Below are positions 238-8,970 of a stretch of 64,000 nucleotides of DNA, piece by piece (within the stretch, counting starts at the first letter, position 1; each line of letters begins with the position of its first letter). The stretch comes from an uncultured delta proteobacterium (GTDB taxonomy: Bacteria > Desulfobacterota > Binatia > UBA9968), in the NCBI GenBank assembly GCA_963755715.1, contig CAVWLW010000032.1, positions 22,564 to 86,563 of the forward strand, read 5' to 3'. The notes under the pieces are model-generated. The model had not been told where the DNA came from, did not search any database, and saw nothing but the letters and a program-made list of their open reading frames with translations. Position numbers and translations under genes: made by a program.

Positions 238-2997
238 ATGAATCCTTTGAAAGAACTCGCGGAACAGGGACAATCGATATGGCTGGATTATATCCGGCGC
301 AACTTGATTCGGAGCGGTGAGCTCAAACGGCTGGTCGACGAAGACGGGCTGCGCGGCGTGACCAGCAATCCGACGATTTTCGACAAAGCGATTTCCGGCA
401 GTACCGATTACGACATGGCGCTGCGCGCGTTGCTCGCGGCCGATCCGCAAGCGCCGGTAGGAAATCTTTACGAAGCGTTGGCGATCGAGGATATTCAGAT
501 GGCGGCCGATGTGCTGCGACCGGTCTATGACGCGACTCACGGTGACGATGGCTACGTGAGCTTCGAAGTGTCGCCCCGTCTCGCGCACGACACCGAGCGC
601 ACGATCAACGAAGCCAAACGCTTGAGGGCCGCGGTTGACCGACCCAATGTGATGATCAAAGTACCGGCGACGCCCGCCGGCATTCCGGCCATCGAAGAGC
701 TGATCGCGGAAGGCGTCAGCGTCAACGTGACTTTGATGTTTTCGATGAGCCATTATGAAGCAGTCGCGCGCGCCTACATAAAAGGCTTGGAGCGCTGCGG
801 CGATCCAGGGCAGGTGGCTTCGGTGGCATCTTTTTTCGTCAGCCGCGTCGATACCATGGTAGACAAGGCGCTCGAAGAGACCGGCAACCCCGAGGCCAAA
901 GCATTGGAGGGAAAAATCGCCATCGCCAATTCGAAGGTCGTTTACCGGCGCTTTTTAGAGATTTTTCACGGCGAAGGATTTGCGGCGTTGCGCCAGCGCG
1001 GCGCGCGGGTGCAACGGCCGTTATGGGCGAGCACGGGAACGAAAAATCCCGCTTACTCGGACGTGCTCTACGTGGAAAATCTGATTGGATCGGAAACGGT
1101 GAATACCTTGCCGCCGGAAACGCTAAACGCGTTTCGCGATCATGGTAAAGTTCCCGGCGCGACCGTGAAGCAAGAATTGGCCGAGGCCGATGAGGTGCTC
1201 GCGCGTCTGGCGAATTTCGGCATCGATCTCAACGCCATTACCGAAAAGCTGCAGCACGATGGTGTTGCCGCTTTTGCCGCGTCCTTCGATCAATTGATGG
1301 CCGGTCTCGAAAAAAAGCGCCAATCGATGCTCGGCGCGGACCTGGATCGACTGGAGCTTCACCTCGGCTCTTACCAAAAGCGGATCGATCGCCGTTTGGC
1401 ACAATGGCAAAAGGACCAATTCGCGAGCCGGCTGTGGAAAAAAGATTACACGATTTGGTCCAAGGAGCCGCAGCCCGAGTTGATCGATCGCCTAGGCTGG
1501 TTGGAATTACCGGAGACGATGGCTAAGGAAGTCGGCGCGCTAACTGCCTTTGCCGACAAAGCCAAAGCGGACGGCATCAAACATGTTGTTCTCCTCGGCA
1601 TGGGCGGTTCAAGCTTGGCGCCGGAAGTTTTTCAACAGACATTTGGCAATGCCTCGGGTTATCCCGAACTGCACGTGCTCGACAGCACCCATCCGGCGGC
1701 GGTGAAGGCGGTCGAAGCCCGTGTCGATTTGGCACACACCTTATTCCTCGTGTCGAGCAAGTCGGGGACGACGACCGAGACCAATTCTTTCTTCTATTAT
1801 TTCTGGGATAAGCTCAAACAAATTGAGAGCGAGCCCGGTTCGCACTTCGTCGCCATCACCGATCCGGGTACGCCGCTGGAAAAATTAGCCGCCGAAAGAC
1901 ATTTCCGCGCAACGTTCAACGCTCCGGAAGAAGTCGGCGGGCGCTATGCGGCGCTCACCGTCTTCGGCTTGGTGCCTGCGGCACTGATCGGCGTCGACGT
2001 CGGCGCGGTGCTGGCGCGCGCGCGGCGCATGAGCGAGGAGTGCGCGCCGACGACAGCGGAAAATCGCCATCCGGGTTTACTTCTCGGCGCTGCTTTAGGC
2101 GAGCTGGCGCTGGCGAAGCGGGATAAAGTGACTTTTTTGTGCTCGCCTTCGCTCTCGGCATTGCCGTCGTGGATCGAGCAATTGATCGCCGAGAGCACGG
2201 GGAAAGATAACAAAGGCATCGTACCGGTGGCCAACGAAAATTTAGCCGCGCCGGAAAATTACGGCGGCGATCGTTTCTTTGTTTATCTCCGTTTCGACGG
2301 CGATGAGAACCATTCCCTTGACCGTCAGGTGGCGGCGCTCGAAGCCAATGGTCACCCCGTTGCGCGGCTCGATTTGAAGGATAAAAGCGATCTCGGCCAG
2401 GAGTTTTTCCGCTGGGAATTTGCCGTAGCGGCGGCGGGCGCAGCGCTCGGCATTCATCCGTTCAACCAGCCCGACGTGCAGCTCGCCAAAGACTTGGCAA
2501 AGAAAGCGATGAGCGAGCCGGCCGACAAAGGAACGGGCAAGGCTAAAGACACGGTTTCGGTTGCCGATCGCGAAGCTTTGCGCAAGGCGGCTGAGTCTTG
2601 GATCGGCAAGAAAAAAGCGCGCGACTATGTCGCGGTGCAGGCGTACATCGATCCGTCGGTGGAAAACGCGGCGAAACTTCAGACGCTCCGTGCGTCGATC
2701 CTGCAGCGCCTGAGCGTTGCAACGACACTCGGCTTCGGCCCGCGTTTTCTCCACTCCACCGGACAACTGCACAAGGGCGGCCCGAACTCGGTGTTGGTGT
2801 TACAGATTGTCGACCAACCTACCGATCACCTAGCAGTGCCGGAGACGAACTACACCTTCGAGGCTTTGATTAAGGCGCAGGCGTTGGGCGATTTTTCAGC
2901 CATGAAGCAGCGGCGCCGGCGCGTGCTCAGAGTCAACCTGGGCAGCGATGCCGCGAGCGGTCTAAATTCATTGACTGAAGTTCTGCGTGCGGAATGA
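238..2997 (+). CDS. Bifunctional transaldolase / glucose-6-phosphate isomerase (Tal-Pgi fusion)
   Basis: 919-aa ORF. The N-terminal half has transaldolase signatures (TSNPTIF, KVPAT). The C-terminal half is PGI-like ([21 protein letters not shown]). A strong RBS (GGGAGAG) precedes the ATG. Confidence 0.9.
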
Positions 2998-3022
2998 CTT
3001 GTCCGCGGAAGGAAAAACGACG

Positions 3023-3255
3023 ATGGAACTGGGAATAATCGGCTTGGTCGGATGGGCGCCAACATGACCGAGCGTCTCGTCCTCGGCGGCCATCGGCTGA
3101 TCAGTTTCGACCGAAGTCCGGAGGCGGTACAGCGAGTCGTCGACGAGGGCGCGCTCTTCGCCCGCTTTACGTCGCGCCAGGAAGACTCGTTCTCGGCGAA
3201 AGTGATCGCCGCGCTGCGCAACGAATTCGGCGGTCACGCGGTGAAGAAAGGTTAG
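3023..3255 (+). pseudogene. gnd: 6-phosphogluconate dehydrogenase (YqeC-like short form) remnant with an internal deletion and a 1-nt frameshift
   Basis: MELGIIGL(G)RMGANMTERLVLGGHRLISFDRSPEAVQRVVDEGA matches the 6PGDH N-terminal Rossmann segment. It is fused directly to the family C-terminus (…SAKVIAALRNEFGGHAVKKG*). About 230 aa of core is missing. One missing g after GGCTTGG shifts the frame. Confidence 0.6.
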
Positions 3256-3261
3256 TGGCTC

Positions 3262-4809
3262 ATGGCCAGCGATAGCGATCCGCATGAATATCTAGGAGAC
3301 GGACTTGGCTCGGCAAAGAAGCCGCATGCCTGCGTGCTGGTGATTTTCGGCGCGTCGGGCGATCTCACCAAACGCAAGCTCATTCCCGCGCTTTATAATC
3401 TCGCGCTCGAGAAGCGCTTGCCCGAGCGCTTTGCCGTGGTCGGCTATGCGCGCAGCGAAATGACCGATGAGTCGTTCCGCGACAAAATGCGCGAAGCGGT
3501 CAAAGAGTTTTCGCGCACCGGGTTGAAGGACGACGTCTGGCAGCAGTTCGCCAACACGCTGTATTACGTGCGGGGAGGCTACGAAGAAAACGATGGCTAC
3601 CAGAGCCTTAAAGAATTTGTCGACGGCTTCGATCGTGGCAGCAGAGTTCTACCAGCGCGAGTTTTCTATTTGGCGACCCCGCCGGATCTCTATGGGAAAG
3701 TGATCGAGAGCATTGCCACGGCGGGATTGGCGCCGAAGGACACCGATGGCGAGCCGCGAACGCGAGTGGTAATCGAAAAGCCGTTCGGCACCGACTTGCA
3801 AACCGCGCGCGAGCTCAATCGCCGAATTCACGAATTCTTGGATGAGCGGCAAATTTACCGGATCGATCATTATCTTGGCAAAGAAACCGTGCAGAACATC
3901 ATGGTGTTCCGTTTCGCCAACGCGGTGTTCGAGCCGATCTGGAATCGACGCTACGTCGACCACGTGCAAATCACTGCGGCGGAATCGGTGGGCGTGGAGA
4001 ACCGCGGTGGCTATTACGAACAAGCCGGCGTGGTGCGCGATATGTTTCAAAACCATTTGCTGCAGCTGCTCTGCATGACGGCGATGGAGCCGCCGGTGGG
4101 TCTCGATGCCGACTCGGTGCGCGATGAGAAAGGTAAGCTGCTCAAGTCGGTTCGTCCCGTAGCGTCGGAGGAAGTCGCGGCGGCGGCGGTGCGCGGTCAA
4201 TACGGCCCCGGCAAGATGGACGGTCAGGAAGGGGTCGGCTATCGACAAGAGCCCGGCGTCGCTAAAAATTCAACGACCGTGACCTACGCGGCGATCCGGT
4301 TCTTCATTGATAACTGGCGCTGGGAAGGCGTGCCGTTTTATCTGCGCTCGGGCAAGCGCTTGGCCAAGCGCGTCTCCGAAATCGCCATCCAGTTTAAGCG
4401 CCCGCCGATGCTGTTGTTCAAGTCTCACGCCGTGGAAGACGTCAACCCCAACGTGCTGGTCATGCGCATTCAGCCCGATGAGGGAGTCTCTTTGACCTTT
4501 GAAGTCAAGCCGCCCGGACATGACATGATTATAAAACCGCTGAGCCTCGATTTTAATTATGAGGAAGCCTTCGGTAACAGCCCGCCGGAGGCGTACGAAA
4601 CGCTTCTGGAGGACTGCATCGAGGGCGATTCGACGTTGTTCACGCGGCATGATTGGGTGGAGTTGGCTTGGTCGCTCGTGGATCCGATTATTCAGGTCTG
4701 GAATCTGAGCAGGCCGAGAAATTTTCCAAACTATGAGGCCGGTTCCTGGGGGCCCAAAGAAGCCGACGATTTCATGGCGCGCGAGGGCCGGCGCTGGCGC
4801 CGGCCGTAG
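3262..4809 (+). CDS. zwf: Glucose-6-phosphate 1-dehydrogenase
   Basis: 515 aa. Carries the G6PD signatures GASGDLTKRKLIPALYNL and RIDHYLGKE. Confidence 0.92.
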   Translation: MASDSDPHEYLGDGLGSAKKPHACVLVIFGASGDLTKRKLIPALYNLALEKRLPERFAVVGYARSEMTDESFRDKMREAVKEFSRTGLKDDVWQQFANTLYYVRGGYEENDGYQSLKEFVDGFDRGSRVLPARVFYLATPPDLYGKVIESIATAGLAPKDTDGEPRTRVVIEKPFGTDLQTARELNRRIHEFLDERQIYRIDHYLGKETVQNIMVFRFANAVFEPIWNRRYVDHVQITAAESVGVENRGGYYEQAGVVRDMFQNHLLQLLCMTAMEPPVGLDADSVRDEKGKLLKSVRPVASEEVAAAAVRGQYGPGKMDGQEGVGYRQEPGVAKNSTTVTYAAIRFFIDNWRWEGVPFYLRSGKRLAKRVSEIAIQFKRPPMLLFKSHAVEDVNPNVLVMRIQPDEGVSLTFEVKPPGHDMIIKPLSLDFNYEEAFGNSPPEAYETLLEDCIEGDSTLFTRHDWVELAWSLVDPIIQVWNLSRPRNFPNYEAGSWGPKEADDFMAREGRRWRRP

Positions 4810-4912: not shown

Positions 4913-5914
4913 ATGGCTCATAGAAATCTCGTTCTCGCGGGCGATATCGGCGGCACCAAGACCAATCTCGCGCTGTTTTCCGTGCACGGCGACAAGCTGC
5001 GCTCCGAGTCCCAGCGCAATTTTCCGAGCAAGCGTTACTCCGGTTTGATCCCGGTTGTGCAGGAATTTCTCGCCGGCGGCGATCACGCGATCGATGCCGC
5101 GTGCTTCGGCATCGCCGGTCCGGTGGTCGACGGCAAAGTCAAGACCCCCAACCTTCCCTGGATGCTCGACACGGCGGAATTGCGCCACGCGCTCAAGCTC
5201 GATGCGGTCACCTTGCTGAACGATCTCGAAGCAGGCGCCTACGGCATCTTCACGCTCGAGAACGATGAATTTTACACTTTGAATGAAGGCACGATGCGCC
5301 AAGCCGGAAACAAGGCGCTGATCGCCGCCGGCACCGGCTTGGGGCAAGCGATCTTGCACGATGACGGGCACCATTTTCATCCGTTGGCATCCGAAGGCGG
5401 CCACGCCGATTTCGCGCCGCGCAATGAATTGGAAATCGAGCTGCTGCGCTATTTGCTCGCGCGGTTTGGTCACGTAAGTTATGAAAGAGTGGTATCGGGG
5501 CCCGGACTGCTCAATATTTACCGATTTCTCAAGGACGCGCGCGGGCTCGAAGAGCCGGCGTGGCTGACCGAGCGGCTCGCGGCCGCGGATGATCCAAGCG
5601 CGGTGATTTCACAGGCGGCGTTGGCTAAAGAAGCGGAGATTTGCGTCGAGGCATTGAATCTCTTCGTGACGGTTTACGGCGCGGAGGCGGGCAATCTCGC
5701 GCTGCGCGCGAAAGCGGTGCGCGGGCTTTACGTCGGCGGCGGCATCGCGCCGAAGATCCTCGACAAGCTCAAAGACGGCACATTCATGAAAGCTTTCGTC
5801 GATAAGGGGCGGTACACGGATCTTTTGGCGGCGACACCGGTTCAGGTCATTTTGAATCCGCAAGCCGCCTTGCGCGGCGCCGCTTACTACGCGGCGTTTC
5901 TTGCCCGTGATTAA
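4913..5914 (+). CDS. glk: Glucokinase (Glk family)
   Basis: 333 aa. N-terminus [17 protein letters not shown], then typical Glk-family core motifs. Confidence 0.85.
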
Positions 5915-6548
5915 ACGCGACATCATTATTTGCCACGACGCTGATGAGCTGGCGCGAAAGGCGGCGGAACAGTTTGTTTCTCTCGCCGACGCCGCGATCG
6001 CCCGATCCGGACGATTTACCGTGGCACTGTCAGGCGGATCGACGCCGCGGGCATCTCTTTTGGGGTGATGAGCGCTGCGTGCCGCCGGATCACGCCGAGA
6101 GTAATTACCGCATGGTTCAGGAGGCGCTGCTGTCGAGAATCAGCATTCCAGCCGGAGAATATTCACCGCATGGCGGGCGAAAAGGAGCCGCGCGTAGCGG
6201 CGAATGAGTACGAAGAGGAATTACGCAGGTTCTTTGCTTTGCGCCGGCCAGTACGGCCTCGCTGCTTTTCCCGGCGGCGCGGCGCTCAATCAAAATGAAC
6301 GTCTGGTGGCAACTGCTTACGTCGAAAGACTCAGAGCCCACCGCCTGACGCTGACTTTGCCGGTCATCAACGCTGCGGCGCAGGTTACCTTCCTGATTGC
6401 CGGGCAGAGCAAGCGCGCCATCGTGAACGAGATCTTGCGGTCGGACGCCGACTCATTCAAGTATCCCGCTGCGCGGGTGAGCCCAAGCGACGGACAACTG
6501 ACCTGGTTGATCACCGCTGACGCCATGGAAAATTTGCCGATTCGATAA
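5908..6548 (+). pseudogene. pgl: 6-phosphogluconolactonase, disrupted by at least three frameshifts
   Basis: The GTG start overlaps the glk stop. Frame 1 has …[12 protein letters not shown]. Frame 2 has [28 protein letters not shown]. Frame 3 has …[12 protein letters not shown]…. Frame 4 has …FPGGAALNQNERLVATAYV…TFLIAGQSKRAIVNEIL… through to the stop. All pieces align to the DevB/Pgl family in order. Confidence 0.75.
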
Positions 6549-6619
6549 AAGCTTCAATCGAATCCCCGCGGCACGAGCTAGAGTTGCCAGAAATTATCTG
6601 TCAGTGAAGGGAGCGCGCT

Positions 6620-7342
6620 ATGAGCGGCTATAACTACGAGAGCTTCGGACAGTGCGATATCGATGCCCCGGATTTTTGGGCAGTTGCCACGATCGGGACG
6701 AAGGCGCCGGATTTTAACTTGGCGGATCTCGACGGCAATCTGGTTTCGCTGTCGTCGTTTGCCGGCAAGAAGCATGTGTTGTTGGAATTCGGCAGCATCA
6801 CGTGACCGCCGTTTGTGGGGGAGGTTCCTCCGCTGACCAAACTCTACCGCGAGTATCGGACGGCAAATTTTCAGTTCTTCATCGTTTACGCCCGCGAAGC
6901 TCATCCCGGGGAAAACTATCCGCACCATACTTCATTGGAACAAAAGCTGGCGCACGCTCGCACGCTGCGCGACTTGGAGCAGATCCAGGAAATTCCGATT
7001 CTCGTCGACGATTTCGCCGGGACAATGCATCGCGCTTACGGCCTCCTGCCGAATATGACCTATCTGATCGACCGCGACGGTATTGTCGTTTACAAGTCCG
7101 ATTGGGGCGATGCGCAGGAAATCGATGGCGTGTGCGCAGCCTCGTCCGACGTCGACGAAATGAAGGCGAATAACGTACCGATCATTCGCCAGGGAATTTC
7201 CCAGCGACTCCACTGGATTCCTATGGACCCCGTGCAGCGCGAACGGGTTTACCGGCGCTCGGGAGAAAAAGCGATTCGCGATTATTTGAACGCGCGCGGC
7301 AGCTTGCCTTACGCGACCGATGCGGAGAAGGCTAAGCGGTAA
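6620..7342 (+). CDS. Iodothyronine-deiodinase-like thioredoxin-fold selenoprotein (in-frame UGA at 6803-6805 read as Sec)
   Basis: ORFs 6620..6805 and 6815..7342 are in the same frame, separated only by TGA. The joined sequence is …KAPDFNLADLDGNLVSLSSFAGKKHVLLEFGSIT-U-PPFVGEVPPLTKLYREYRTANFQFFIVYAREAHPGENYP…. This matches the deiodinase active-site signature FGSxTUPPF and the downstream (V)YIxEAH motif. Confidence 0.75.
6811..6840 (+). ncRNA. Candidate bacterial SECIS hairpin for the deiodinase-like gene
   Basis: GUUUGuGGGGGAGGuuCCUCCgcugacCAAAC begins 6 nt 3' of the UGA. It has a GGAGG/CCUCC inner stem, a G/U-containing apical loop and a GUUUG/CAAAC outer stem. Confidence 0.4.
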
Positions 7343-7466
7343 GAAGAAAGCGCTAAGAGTGTTCGAGTATTGGGCGAAAATTAAATTTTGCTCTAGCTCG
7401 CAAAGTCCGCTCTGGATCGCGCAGAAAGCGGCTGTTTGAGAAACACGGGCTCGACGCCGAGTTGCT

Positions 7467-8066
7467 TTACGTCGCTATTTGATCTTGACCAGTTGCTGGT
7501 GAATCTGCTGCGTTCGACGGGCGTTTCTTGTAATCGACCTCGATAAATTTCCAACGCACGACGCCCTTCGGATCGACGATGAACGTCGATGGATGCGGCC
7601 AGCCCTTGCCGTCGGGGTTGAAGACACCGTAGCGGTTGATCACCTTGTGATCTTTATCTTCGAGCAGCGGAAAATCGAACTCGCCGTCGAACCGTTTGCT
7701 CAGCATTTCGCCGAATTTTTTCGACTCCTCGTGGGTGTCGACGCTGACCGCGAGGATTTGCACTTTCTCTTTTTCCTGCTTCGACAATAAACTTTTCAGC
7801 TTCCCGAGCTGTTCCATGCAGAAGGGTCACCAGTAGCCGCGATAGAAAACCAAGACGACGGTCTTCTTGTCGCGGAACTCCGATAACGCGATGGTCTTGC
7901 CGCCGGCATCTTCGAGGGAAAAATCCGGCGCCGGCTGCCCGACTTTGATGCGGTTTAGATCGGTCGGACTCAGATCGGCGCCGTCTTTCGGCCCCAATTG
8001 AGCGAGCACGGTGGTGCTTGAGAGCAAGATTGCAAAAAACGCAGCCAGGAAAAATCTTATTCCCAT
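7467..8066 (-). CDS. Secreted peroxiredoxin/AhpC-TSA-like thiol:disulfide oxidoreductase selenoprotein (in-frame UGA at 7827-7829, motif W-U-P-F-C)
   Basis: ORFs 7827..8066 and 7467..7817 share a frame and are separated by a single TGA. The joined sequence is a signal peptide (MGIRFFLAAFFAILLSSTTVLA) followed by …GQPAPDFSLEDAGGKTIALSEFRDKKTVVLVFYRGYW-U-PFCMEQLGKL…FPLLEDKDHKVINRYGV…STFIVDPKGVV…. The Prx fold is conserved and Sec replaces the first Cys of CxxC. Confidence 0.75.
7795..7815 (-). ncRNA. Candidate SECIS hairpin for the Prx-like selenoprotein
   Basis: On the mRNA, CAGCUcgggaAGCUG starts about 15 nt 3' of the UGA. It has a 5-bp stem and a GG-containing loop. Longer-range CUUCUGC/GCAGGAAG pairing is possible. 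Confidence 0.35.
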
Positions 8067-8094
8067 GAAAGAGCTCCTTTAAGCGGATTTAACG

Positions 8095-8970
8095 TCAATC
8101 CATGCCGTCAGTTCCGGTCATCCTAGAGCCGCGTGGCGTCGGCGCGGTCCGGCTTACGTAAGGATCGAACCTGCGCTGGGCAAGATAGCGAAACAGATTG
8201 GGCATATGACGCTTGAATGCGCACAAAAGTGCCAACCATCGTGGCAGGATCACTTCGAACTTGTTTTTCTCGATGGCTTTGATGACTTCACGGCAAACGG
8301 CTTCGGTAGTCACGATCAATTTCGCGGGTGATTTGGGCTCGCTGTCGCGAAAATCGCGATTGAACTCGGTCTGCACCGGGCCGGGACAGATCATCGAAAC
8401 GTTGACTCCCAACGGTTTCAGCTCGTAGTAGAGGCTCTCCGACCAGCCGTTCATCGCGAACTTGGAGCCGCAGTAGGCCGCCATGTTGAGCGTGCCGATT
8501 TTTCCTGCAACGGAAGAGATATTGACAATGTGACCGGCGCCTCTGGCGATCATGGACGGCAACACTTCGTGCGCGCAATAGACCGCGCCGAGAAAGTTCG
8601 TGCGCATGATTTCTTCAACAGTCTCGAGCGGCATGTCGACAAAGGGCTGGCGCATGCCGACACCGGCGTTATTGATCAAAATATCGATCTTGCCGTAATC
8701 GGCGAGGACCTTGGCCATCATGCCGCGCACTTGCTCGGCATCGCCGACGTCGCAGCCGATCATCACGGAACGCGGACTGGCGCGGCGCACTTCGACCAGG
8801 ACTTCTTTCAGGCGCGGAATCGAGCGGCCGCAGCCGGCGACGATGGCGCCGCGCGTGGCAAGATCAACGGCGAGCTGACGGCCGATGCCGTTCGAAGCGC
8901 CGGTGATGAGGATGACTTGATTGGTAAATTGCATCGTGCGTTTTCGCCGCCTTGAATAATTCAGCCACAT
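8095..8970 (-). CDS. Short-chain dehydrogenase/reductase (SDR family)
   Basis: TGASNGIGRQLA Rossmann motif and the SDR catalytic region (…SSVAG…YCGSKFA…). Confidence 0.85.
   Translation of the reverse strand: MWLNYSRRRKRTMQFTNQVILITGASNGIGRQLAVDLATRGAIVAGCGRSIPRLKEVLVEVRRASPRSVMIGCDVGDAEQVRGMMAKVLADYGKIDILINNAGVGMRQPFVDMPLETVEEIMRTNFLGAVYCAHEVLPSMIARGAGHIVNISSVAGKIGTLNMAAYCGSKFAMNGWSESLYYELKPLGVNVSMICPGPVQTEFNRDFRDSEPKSPAKLIVTTEAVCREVIKAIEKNKFEVILPRWLALLCAFKRHMPNLFRYLAQRRFDPYVSRTAPTPRGSRMTGTDGMD

Follow-up and report, generated by a model that had tools for sequence, protein, structure and literature searches.

A predicted exported selenoprotein with a peroxiredoxin-like fold and a UxxC active site in an uncultured delta proteobacterium of the Binatia

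A 64,000-nucleotide stretch of DNA from an uncultured delta proteobacterium of the Binatia (contig CAVWLW010000032.1, positions 22,564 to 86,563; here called the window) carries on its minus strand frames of 79 and 116 codons that lie in the same reading frame and are separated solely by a TGA at 7827-7829, as an initial annotation of this DNA had proposed. The two frames are very probably one gene in which TGA encodes selenocysteine (Sec). Its product is most likely a single exported oxidoreductase of ~196 amino acids with a thioredoxin fold, built on a scaffold like those of AhpE and BCP, with UGA decoded as Sec. The protein fits the family named "Prx-like thiol:disulfide oxidoreductase (UxxC)" and is a solid but ordinary find.

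Gene structure and reading frame

The gene starts with an ATG at 8066-8064, and AAGGAG is located 8 nt upstream. After the TGA, the frame continues with CCC TTC TGC ATG, the last of which opens the 116-amino-acid open reading frame (ORF; 7467-7817), and comprises 119 further codons up to a TAA at 7469-7467. The joined translation, MGIRFFLAAFFAILLSSTTVLAQLGPKDG...VVLVFYRGYW-U-PFCMEQLGKLKSLL..., reads VVLVFYRGYW-U-PFCMEQLGKL at the junction. In the window (56% GC), 54 TGAs are flanked in frame by 60 or more open codons both before and after, and the ORF geometry alone therefore proves nothing.

The Pfam AhpC-TSA domain matches residues 42-172 of the joined protein over profile positions 1-123 of 124, with 122.3 bits (E = 1.4e-35; cutoff, 26), while the halves alone score 33 bits (profile 1-37) and 64 bits (profile 44-123). 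The match crosses the TGA, which indicates one gene and bears out, through the profile search that the initial annotation had recommended, its prediction of a Prx/AhpC-TSA fold. Conservation in the alignment of orthologs continues across the TGA without a break. For codon positions 1, 2, and 3, the mean pairwise differences are 0.31, 0.25, and 0.59 in the 34 codons before it and 0.44, 0.35, and 0.59 in the 30 codons after it; variability is highest at the third position on both sides, indicating a single frame under purifying selection.

The ATG at 7817 is not preceded by a ribosome binding site (RBS), and most orthologs have GTA, GTC, ATC, ACA, or GCT (Val, Ile, Leu, Thr, and Ala being the residues found) at this codon, so the second half lacks a separate start. 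The initial annotation had regarded two observations as fatal to its proposal, namely, homologs in which the halves are separate genes and a downstream Met start with its own RBS combined with a lack of conservation over the TGA. Neither was found, and homologs with a Cys codon are full length.

Conservation of the UGA codon

Protein searches recovered relatives of three kinds: full-length JGI proteins that are 60 to 72% identical and in which the TGA position is read as W; dozens of clusters of 113 to 115 amino acids, 63 to 96% identical, that begin exactly at the residue after U-P-F-C; and full-length W-C-P-Y-C homologs with ~50% identity. In the two W forms for which DNA was examined (P0001 and P0004), the actual codon is TGA, and Trp is consequently an artefact of gene calling. 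On every contig examined, an AhpC-TSA fragment of 73 to 79 amino acids stops 9 nt before a fragment of the 113-amino-acid type; the latter clusters are C-terminal halves of split genes.

Scanning of species-representative genomes yielded 23 loci. The ten closest (46 to 81% identical) all have TGA and belong to “Candidatus Binatia,” “uncultured delta proteobacterium,” Udaeobacter, Blastocatellia, Gammaproteobacteria, and Gemmatimonadetes, and TGA is also present in a distant Kofleriaceae homolog. The closest named genomes are metagenome-assembled genomes (MAGs) of Binatia. A metagenome scan with peptide patterns placed outside the hairpin region (see below) added 80 loci, and all loci combined comprise 92 distinct TGA forms, five Cys forms (TGC/TGT), and one TCA form. 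The TGA forms represent at least six bacterial lineages (from MAGs) as well as soil metagenomes. The TGA is not an assembly artefact, given its recurrence among independently assembled sequences from many samples.

In addition to the five Cys loci, 36 of 48 full-length database homologs have Cys at the Sec position, and the search for Cys orthologs that the initial annotation had suggested was thus productive. This pairing of the same TGA codon in relatives with a Cys codon in homologs supports the reading as Sec. The codon after UGA always begins with C (UGA-CCN), and UGA-C is a weak termination context.

Several other loci were of interest in their own right. JGI calls on short contigs (L032 and L033; P0001 to P0014) translate TGA as Trp and so create “WWPFC” proteins, which are false Trp variants and hidden selenoproteins. 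One 77% identical ortholog (L034, 2666-3184) has TCA (Ser) in place of TGA, an intact class A hairpin, and a truncated N terminus, and may represent a recent loss of Sec, a pseudogene, or a read error. Contig L033 carries two Sec-containing Prx-like paralogs in tandem (11-460 and 632-1219): the upstream copy has a class B hairpin (CGGC-AGUUG-GCCG) and no signal-peptide-like N terminus in the part present on the contig, and the downstream copy is a class A ortholog of the window gene. In two sister genomes, a short AhpC-TSA fragment gene of 109 to 130 amino acids is located ~4 kb upstream of the ortholog (L003, 1869-2261; L007, 1828-2157) and may be another split selenoprotein gene.

A candidate SECIS hairpin downstream of UGA

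A hairpin with a 5' arm CAGCU (7811-7807), a loop CGGGA (7806-7802), and a 3' arm AGCUG (7801-7797) starts 15 nt after the UGA in the window and consists of 5 bp with a G-rich loop of 5 nt (-5.3 kcal/mol). The arms and spacing agree with the initial annotation, but the loop is of five nucleotides rather than GG. Nearly all TGA forms possess a hairpin with a G-rich loop that begins 12 to 20 nt after the UGA. Across 86 TGA-form genes folded in 31-nt segments, the mean energy falls to its global minimum at position +9 from the UGA (-9.8 versus ~-5.7 kcal/mol gene-wide).

Three sequence-unrelated hairpin classes occur at the same place, each with G in the loop: class A (CAGCU-NGGNN-AGCUG; 60 sequences, including the window), class B (CGGC-AGUUR-GCCG; 20 sequences), and class C (GCUCCAA-GGUC-UUGGAGC; 5 sequences). 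Inspection of the six unclassified TGA forms showed individual hairpins in most of them. The pairs flanking the class A core change on both sides (U-A in 21 and G-C in 10 sequences; C-G in 28 and U-A in 7) and are unpaired in the clade of the window. Pairing extends to 96% of cells in class B, where double changes are seen in four of the five pairs, a result approached by none of 500 shuffles and by no slid register; the partners in one such pair are the third, synonymous base of an Ala codon and the second base of another codon, five positions on (GCU/GAG, GCG/GCA, and GCC/GGA).

The stem Gln codon is CAG in 81 and CAA in 2 Sec forms, compared with 3 and 2, respectively, in Cys forms (Fisher P = 0.015), and among the conserved degenerate codons of the region, it has the lowest synonymous entropy in Sec forms. 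Cys forms do not keep the peptide QLG[KE]L (they have QLAGM and QLKEM), and the hairpin is absent in two of those that were checked.

Bacterial selenocysteine insertion sequence (SECIS) elements are described as stem-loops within the coding sequence just after UGA whose small apical loop contains G (PMC1088965). The position and loop of the window hairpin conform to this description, the family shows covariation, and the hairpin is supported as a candidate SECIS at the appropriate distance. RNAalifold recovers the 5-bp helix only, and a longer stem-loop predicted by ViennaRNA after the UGA was dropped as it is not conserved. Rfam gave no match in the window at gathering thresholds, which is uninformative, as Rfam has no general bacterial SECIS model. 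Two Cys (TGC) forms have hairpin-like sequences at the SECIS position (CGGC-AGCUG-GCCG at 796 in L077 and AGCUC-ACG-GAGCU at 1235 in L085), which are possibly relics of Sec-to-Cys conversion.

Fold, active site, and family

The closest solved structures by sequence are BCP/PrxQ (2cx3) and AhpE (1xvw/4x1u; E ~1e-13), followed by ResA. The AlphaFold model of a Cys homolog (P0058) has a mean predicted local distance difference test (pLDDT) value of 85.5, exceeding 93 from residue 50, and is closest to AhpE (template modeling [TM] score of 0.86 normalized to the target; root mean square deviation of 1.9 Å), with ResA ranked 42nd. In the alignment, F-Y-R-G-Y-W-U-P-F-C corresponds to F-F-P-A-A-F-S-P-V-C of BCP and F-F-P-L-A-F-T-G-I-C of AhpE: Sec80 stands at the conserved Thr/Ser of PxxxT/SxxC, Cys83 at the peroxidatic Cys, and Arg76 at the conserved Pro. 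Pro159, within W-P-H-P-S-T-F-I-V-D, stands at the catalytic Arg (R116 of AhpE), the segment H-P-S-T aligning with N-R-G-T and K-R-A-V. The initial annotation had placed the UGA at the first Cys of a CxxC/peroxidatic motif, which is correct for the first Cys of a thioredoxin-type CxxC but not for the peroxidatic Cys, to which Cys83 corresponds.

Neither the PxxxT/SxxC(U) motif nor the catalytic Arg of peroxiredoxins proper is kept. A UxxC predicted at the start of helix alpha1, together with a Pro-Ser/Thr loop, is the arrangement of thioredoxin, TlpA, and ResA. As judged from these residues, the protein is Prx-like in fold, its active site is not that of a peroxiredoxin, and it is not a true peroxiredoxin. 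No NCBIfam model reached its cutoff (ResA, 65 versus 170; PrxU, 62.6 versus 270; SelL-related, 54 versus 120; BCP, partial match), all Prx models fell well short of theirs, and the names ResA, PrxU, BCP, and SelL were therefore not adopted.

Prx-like UxxC selenoproteins have been predicted since 2004, first in Deltaproteobacteria of the Geobacter and Syntrophus type. In this family, a thioredoxin-like UXXC replaces the TXXU of Sec-containing peroxiredoxins, as described in a study of the Sargasso Sea (PMC1088965), and members are present in Geobacter and Syntrophus genomes (PMC1794560). “Prx-like 1, pfam00578, UxxC” accounted for 225 Sec and 2,740 Cys sequences in the Global Ocean Sampling (GOS) data (PMC2398784), and “Prx-like thiol:disulfide oxidoreductase, PF00578, UxxC” is among the high-confidence predicted families (PMC13188914). 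The window protein has both features of this family, the PF00578 domain and UxxC instead of TxxU/TxxC.

Export and potential reductant

The N terminus contains, as the initial annotation had anticipated, a predicted signal peptide, MGIRFFLAAFFAILLSSTTVLA (8066-8001), with cleavage predicted after VLA (Ala22) and before QLGPKDG. Its positively charged n region is MGIR, its h and c regions are FFLAAFFAILLSS and TTVLA (followed by Q), and Kyte-Doolittle hydropathy peaks at 2.95 over residues 5 to 15. Orthologs from several phyla share an n-h-c N terminus with AxA/AxG directly before an invariant (Q)LGP, while the sequences themselves differ. The N terminus of the window protein has neither a twin-Arg motif nor a lipobox Cys. 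The protein is thus strongly predicted to be exported to a periplasmic or other extracytoplasmic location.

A dsbD gene (DsbD_N, DsbD_TM, and Thioredoxin_7 domains) is divergently adjacent to Cys forms in two separate lineages (L037 to L040, ~1440-3746; L077, 2-169). DsbD is an electron hub that supplies periplasmic oxidoreductases with electrons from thioredoxin in the cytoplasm, and an envelope peroxiredoxin is served by a related transporter (PMC3322552). The adjacency of dsbD may provide a lead to the physiological reductant.

The 3' end of the gene

An extra G near 7511 shifts the last 11 codons of the gene, and the final 18 residues read in the window after ...RPSN are out of frame relative to all homologs. 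Homologs end with ...RPSNxQIHQQLVKIK (P0018, P0020, and P0022), whereas the tail in the window is unrelated and replaces a conserved C-terminal helix. Deletion of one G (~7511) gives ...RPSN-QQIHQQLVKIK and a TAG stop at 7477-7475, for a probable length of 196 amino acids (195 to 196 in orthologs). The 3' boundary of the ORF at 7467 in the initial annotation therefore belongs to the frame-shifted tail, and the stop is more likely at 7475-7477. A contig from ENA (L001) shares 98.6% identity with the window along 12.4 kb, with 27 gap openings between the two, and has a different indel at this site, suggesting that the 3' end of the gene is error prone in assemblies. The features of the gene are listed in Table 1.

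A further cluster of frameshifts affects pgl (6-phosphogluconolactonase; 5901-6548, plus strand), which is broken into four segments in frames 3-1-2-3 compared with an intact copy of 252 amino acids in L006. These are at least three frameshifts in 650 nt, reflecting either a cluster of assembly indels or a decaying gene.

Table 1. Features of the Prx-like gene in the window
Feature	Positions	Strand	Basis
First 79 codons: signal peptide, LGPKDG...PTDLxRIKVG linker, and first Prx-fold strands to VFYRGYW	7830..8066	-	Translation, Pfam, orthologs
In-frame TGA, proposed Sec codon (residue 80), first position of U-P-F-C	7827..7829	-	Sequence, relatives
Candidate bacterial SECIS hairpin over codons Q86-L90	7797..7811	-	Sequence, energy, comparative folding
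Rest of coding sequence: P-F-C83, helix alpha1, core Prx fold, cis-Pro-type loop W-P-H-P159-S-T-F-I-V-D	7467..7826	-	Translation, Pfam match
Probable true 3' end after removal of one G (~7511)	7475..7511	-	Alternative frame, homolog C termini

Proposed mechanism and alternative explanations

UGA80 would be decoded as Sec, with the hairpin inside the coding sequence acting as a SECIS that recruits SelB-GTP-Sec-tRNA(Sec) and the weak UGA-C stop context aiding recoding. The product would be exported via the Sec translocon and cleaved after VLA at residue 22. Sec80 and Cys83 would then form a U-x-x-C redox pair at the N terminus of helix alpha1, in which the Sec80 selenolate could attack an oxidized substrate (a protein disulfide or sulfenate, or a peroxide) and Cys83 could resolve the adduct to a selenenylsulfide. 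The latter may be reduced by a membrane transporter of the DsbD/CcdA type that is fed by cytoplasmic thioredoxin.

The type of substrate may be argued in two directions, since the scaffold favors peroxide and the layout of the active site favors thiol-disulfide exchange. If the protein is a selenoprotein, it is possible, though not the likelier outcome, that it is a periplasmic peroxidase, in which Sec80 reduces H2O2 or organic hydroperoxides in the manner of glutathione peroxidase and Cys83 resolves the selenenic acid. Such an activity would suit a scaffold whose nearest relatives in both sequence and fold are peroxiredoxins, the location of Cys83 at the peroxidatic position, and the existence of an envelope peroxiredoxin that depends on a DsbD-type transporter (PMC3322552); Sec enzymes are also typically peroxide or redox active (PMC13188914). 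However, the catalytic set of peroxiredoxins has been dismantled (Arg76 for Pro, Sec for Thr, and Pro159 for Arg), UxxC with a cis-Pro-type loop is the layout of thioredoxin, TlpA, and ResA, and the PrxU score falls far below its cutoff.

Several observations weigh against an exported selenoprotein read by way of this hairpin. As a single sequence, the stretch of 56 to 80 nt after the UGA in the window folds no better than shuffled sequences (z = -0.33 for 60 nt), and at only 5 bp, the window hairpin is the weakest version in the family, the two flanking pairs being replaced by A-A and C-A mismatches. The 5-bp core is invariant in class A and hence shows no covariation in itself, the conserved peptide QLGKL is encoded by the same nucleotides, and the loop has GGG instead of the GU of Escherichia coli fdhF. 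No signature of tRNA-Sec, selA, selB, or selD was detected in the 64-kb window with crude regular-expression probes and a tRNA scan. The assembly is rich in indels, and the 3' end of the gene itself is frame-shifted in the window. The adjacency of dsbD was seen for Cys forms only, and no partner is conserved across phyla in a clustering of neighbors from ~100 loci and in Pfam scans of the flanks in distant phyla. Finally, no biochemically characterized member of the subfamily was found in the literature searched.

Reading of UGA as a standard residue (Trp, Gly, or Cys) through an altered code or a suppressor tRNA is very improbable. JGI calls give Trp at this position, and TGG is the true codon at the Sec position of one deiodinase-like paralog elsewhere, but the DNA behind the JGI residues is TGA called on short contigs. 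An altered genetic code was rejected on the same grounds and because TGA terminates 19 of the 38 long ORFs in the window, more than any other stop codon, which indicates the standard code. The host lineages use the standard genetic code. Plain read-through would have no need of a conserved downstream hairpin, and the redox-active Cys of homologs completes a Sec/Cys pair, which is a hallmark of selenoproteins.

The least probable explanation is that TGA is a true stop, in either a pseudogene or a 79-amino-acid secreted peptide followed by a separately initiated 116-amino-acid fragment; gene callers split the gene in this way in every database, an ATG lies 9 nt after the TGA in the window, and indels are numerous. 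However, neither half is a complete fold, no RBS precedes that ATG and most orthologs lack a start codon there, and Cys-codon homologs are full length. The TGA is shared by 92 distinct sequences across several phyla, and purifying selection acts on both halves in a single frame, a pattern in which a nonsense mutation would not persist.

Genomic neighborhood

In the Binatia clade, the Prx-like gene is located on the same strand after SDR and epimerase genes, 28 nt past the SDR stop codon. A scan for promoters and terminators over 7200-8300 detected no promoter-like site between the SDR and Prx-like genes and no convincing terminator, and the Prx-like gene is probably cotranscribed with the SDR and epimerase genes in Binatia. 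This synteny is confined to the Binatia clade.

The convergent neighbor (6620-7342, plus strand), 125 nt away, is also a conserved gene interrupted by TGA (6803-6805), with the motif FGSIT-U-PPF and a Pfam T4_deiodinase match of 58 bits. The motif closely resembles the active-site motif of animal deiodinases. A GC-rich hairpin (GGGGGAGG / CCUCCGCU) is located ~13 nt after its UGA. More than 100 database clusters consist of C-terminal fragments of ~175 amino acids, suggesting that most members of this family, too, are Sec forms that have been miscalled. The deiodinase-like gene is indirect evidence that the organism may decode Sec.

The initial annotation had taken the two genes to suggest a small selenoprotein redox locus, an interpretation that is not supported. 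Among ~100 loci, the adjacency occurs only in L001, from the same species, and in L041, with a 97% identical ortholog; sister genomes have a guanylate cyclase gene or pgl in the position of the deiodinase-like gene. A functional unit of two adjacent selenoprotein genes was rejected, as the genes are convergent and their adjacency is lineage specific. No inverted repeat was found in the convergent spacer. Elsewhere, one MAG contig from NCBI (L121) carries two deiodinase-like paralogs ~2 kb apart (3501-4226 and 6393-7115), one with TGG and one with TGA at the Sec position; Trp is unusual at a catalytic Sec site and could reflect an error in sequencing, inactivation of this copy, or a Sec-to-Trp change, which is a single step away from TGA.

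Implications

All gene callers consulted split or mistranslate the gene, giving fragments of 79 and 113 to 140 amino acids or Trp at UGA, and soil lineages such as the Binatia are therefore undercounted in both redox capacity and selenium use. A literature search on selenoproteins in Binatia returned nothing relevant. The family also provides a natural experiment in recoding, in which one UGA position is served by three hairpins and compensatory changes couple a synonymous site to the choice of amino acid. The gene points to selenium-based thiol chemistry outside the cytoplasm. It leaves the known picture of bacterial selenoproteins unchanged and adds a well-supported member.

A much broader proposal, which we consider speculative and unlikely to hold in full, is that the UxxC clade with a signal peptide is a major, almost obligately Sec-dependent extracytoplasmic redox enzyme in soil bacteria. 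It would be exported by the Sec translocon and recycled by DsbD/CcdA in largely aerobic phyla that are not known as selenium users (Binatota, Acidobacteriota, Verrucomicrobiota, and Gemmatimonadota), its recoding hairpin having been reinvented at least three times with its position kept. If this were the case, the protein would to our knowledge be the first selenoprotein with demonstrated export through the Sec translocon, and the clade would provide a handle on selenium demand in soils.

Comparison with known systems

PrxU of the Eubacterium acidaminophilum type (NCBIfam NF040737; TxxU) has the AhpC/TSA fold and an in-frame UGA in the active site, as does the window gene. In PrxU, however, Sec occupies the position of the peroxidatic Cys (T-x-x-U), whereas in the window protein, Sec is located three residues earlier, at the Thr, the Cys is kept, and the catalytic Arg is absent. 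AhpE and BCP are the best matches in sequence and fold, share the order of strands and helices, and have their peroxidatic position at Cys83. They are cytoplasmic, lack Sec, and keep PxxxT/SxxC...R, unlike the window protein, which has Arg76, Sec80, Cys83, and Pro159.

The TlpA, ResA, and CcmG proteins are exported and have a W-C-x-x-C-type motif at the start of helix alpha1 and a cis-Pro loop before a ...TFxxD strand, as predicted for the window protein. Their reduction is established to depend on DsbD/CcdA (PMC3322552). ResA is the top NCBIfam match, with 65 bits against a cutoff of 170, but the window protein is structurally nearer to Prx, and no cytochrome c maturation genes are found near its gene.

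The Prx-like UxxC selenoproteins provide the closest comparison, with the PF00578 domain, Sec in the first position of UxxC, a hairpin with G in the loop after the UGA, and many Cys homologs, a likeness seen in domain, motif, and published descriptions of the family (reference sequence, WP_010940744.1). The present clade differs in its origin from soil lineages (Binatia, Acidobacteriota, Verrucomicrobiota, and Gemmatimonadota) rather than from marine plankton or anaerobic Deltaproteobacteria. It is further distinguished by a conserved predicted signal peptide, by a conserved LGPKDG linker, and, in the loci sampled, by an almost constant Sec form (92 TGA versus 5 Cys).

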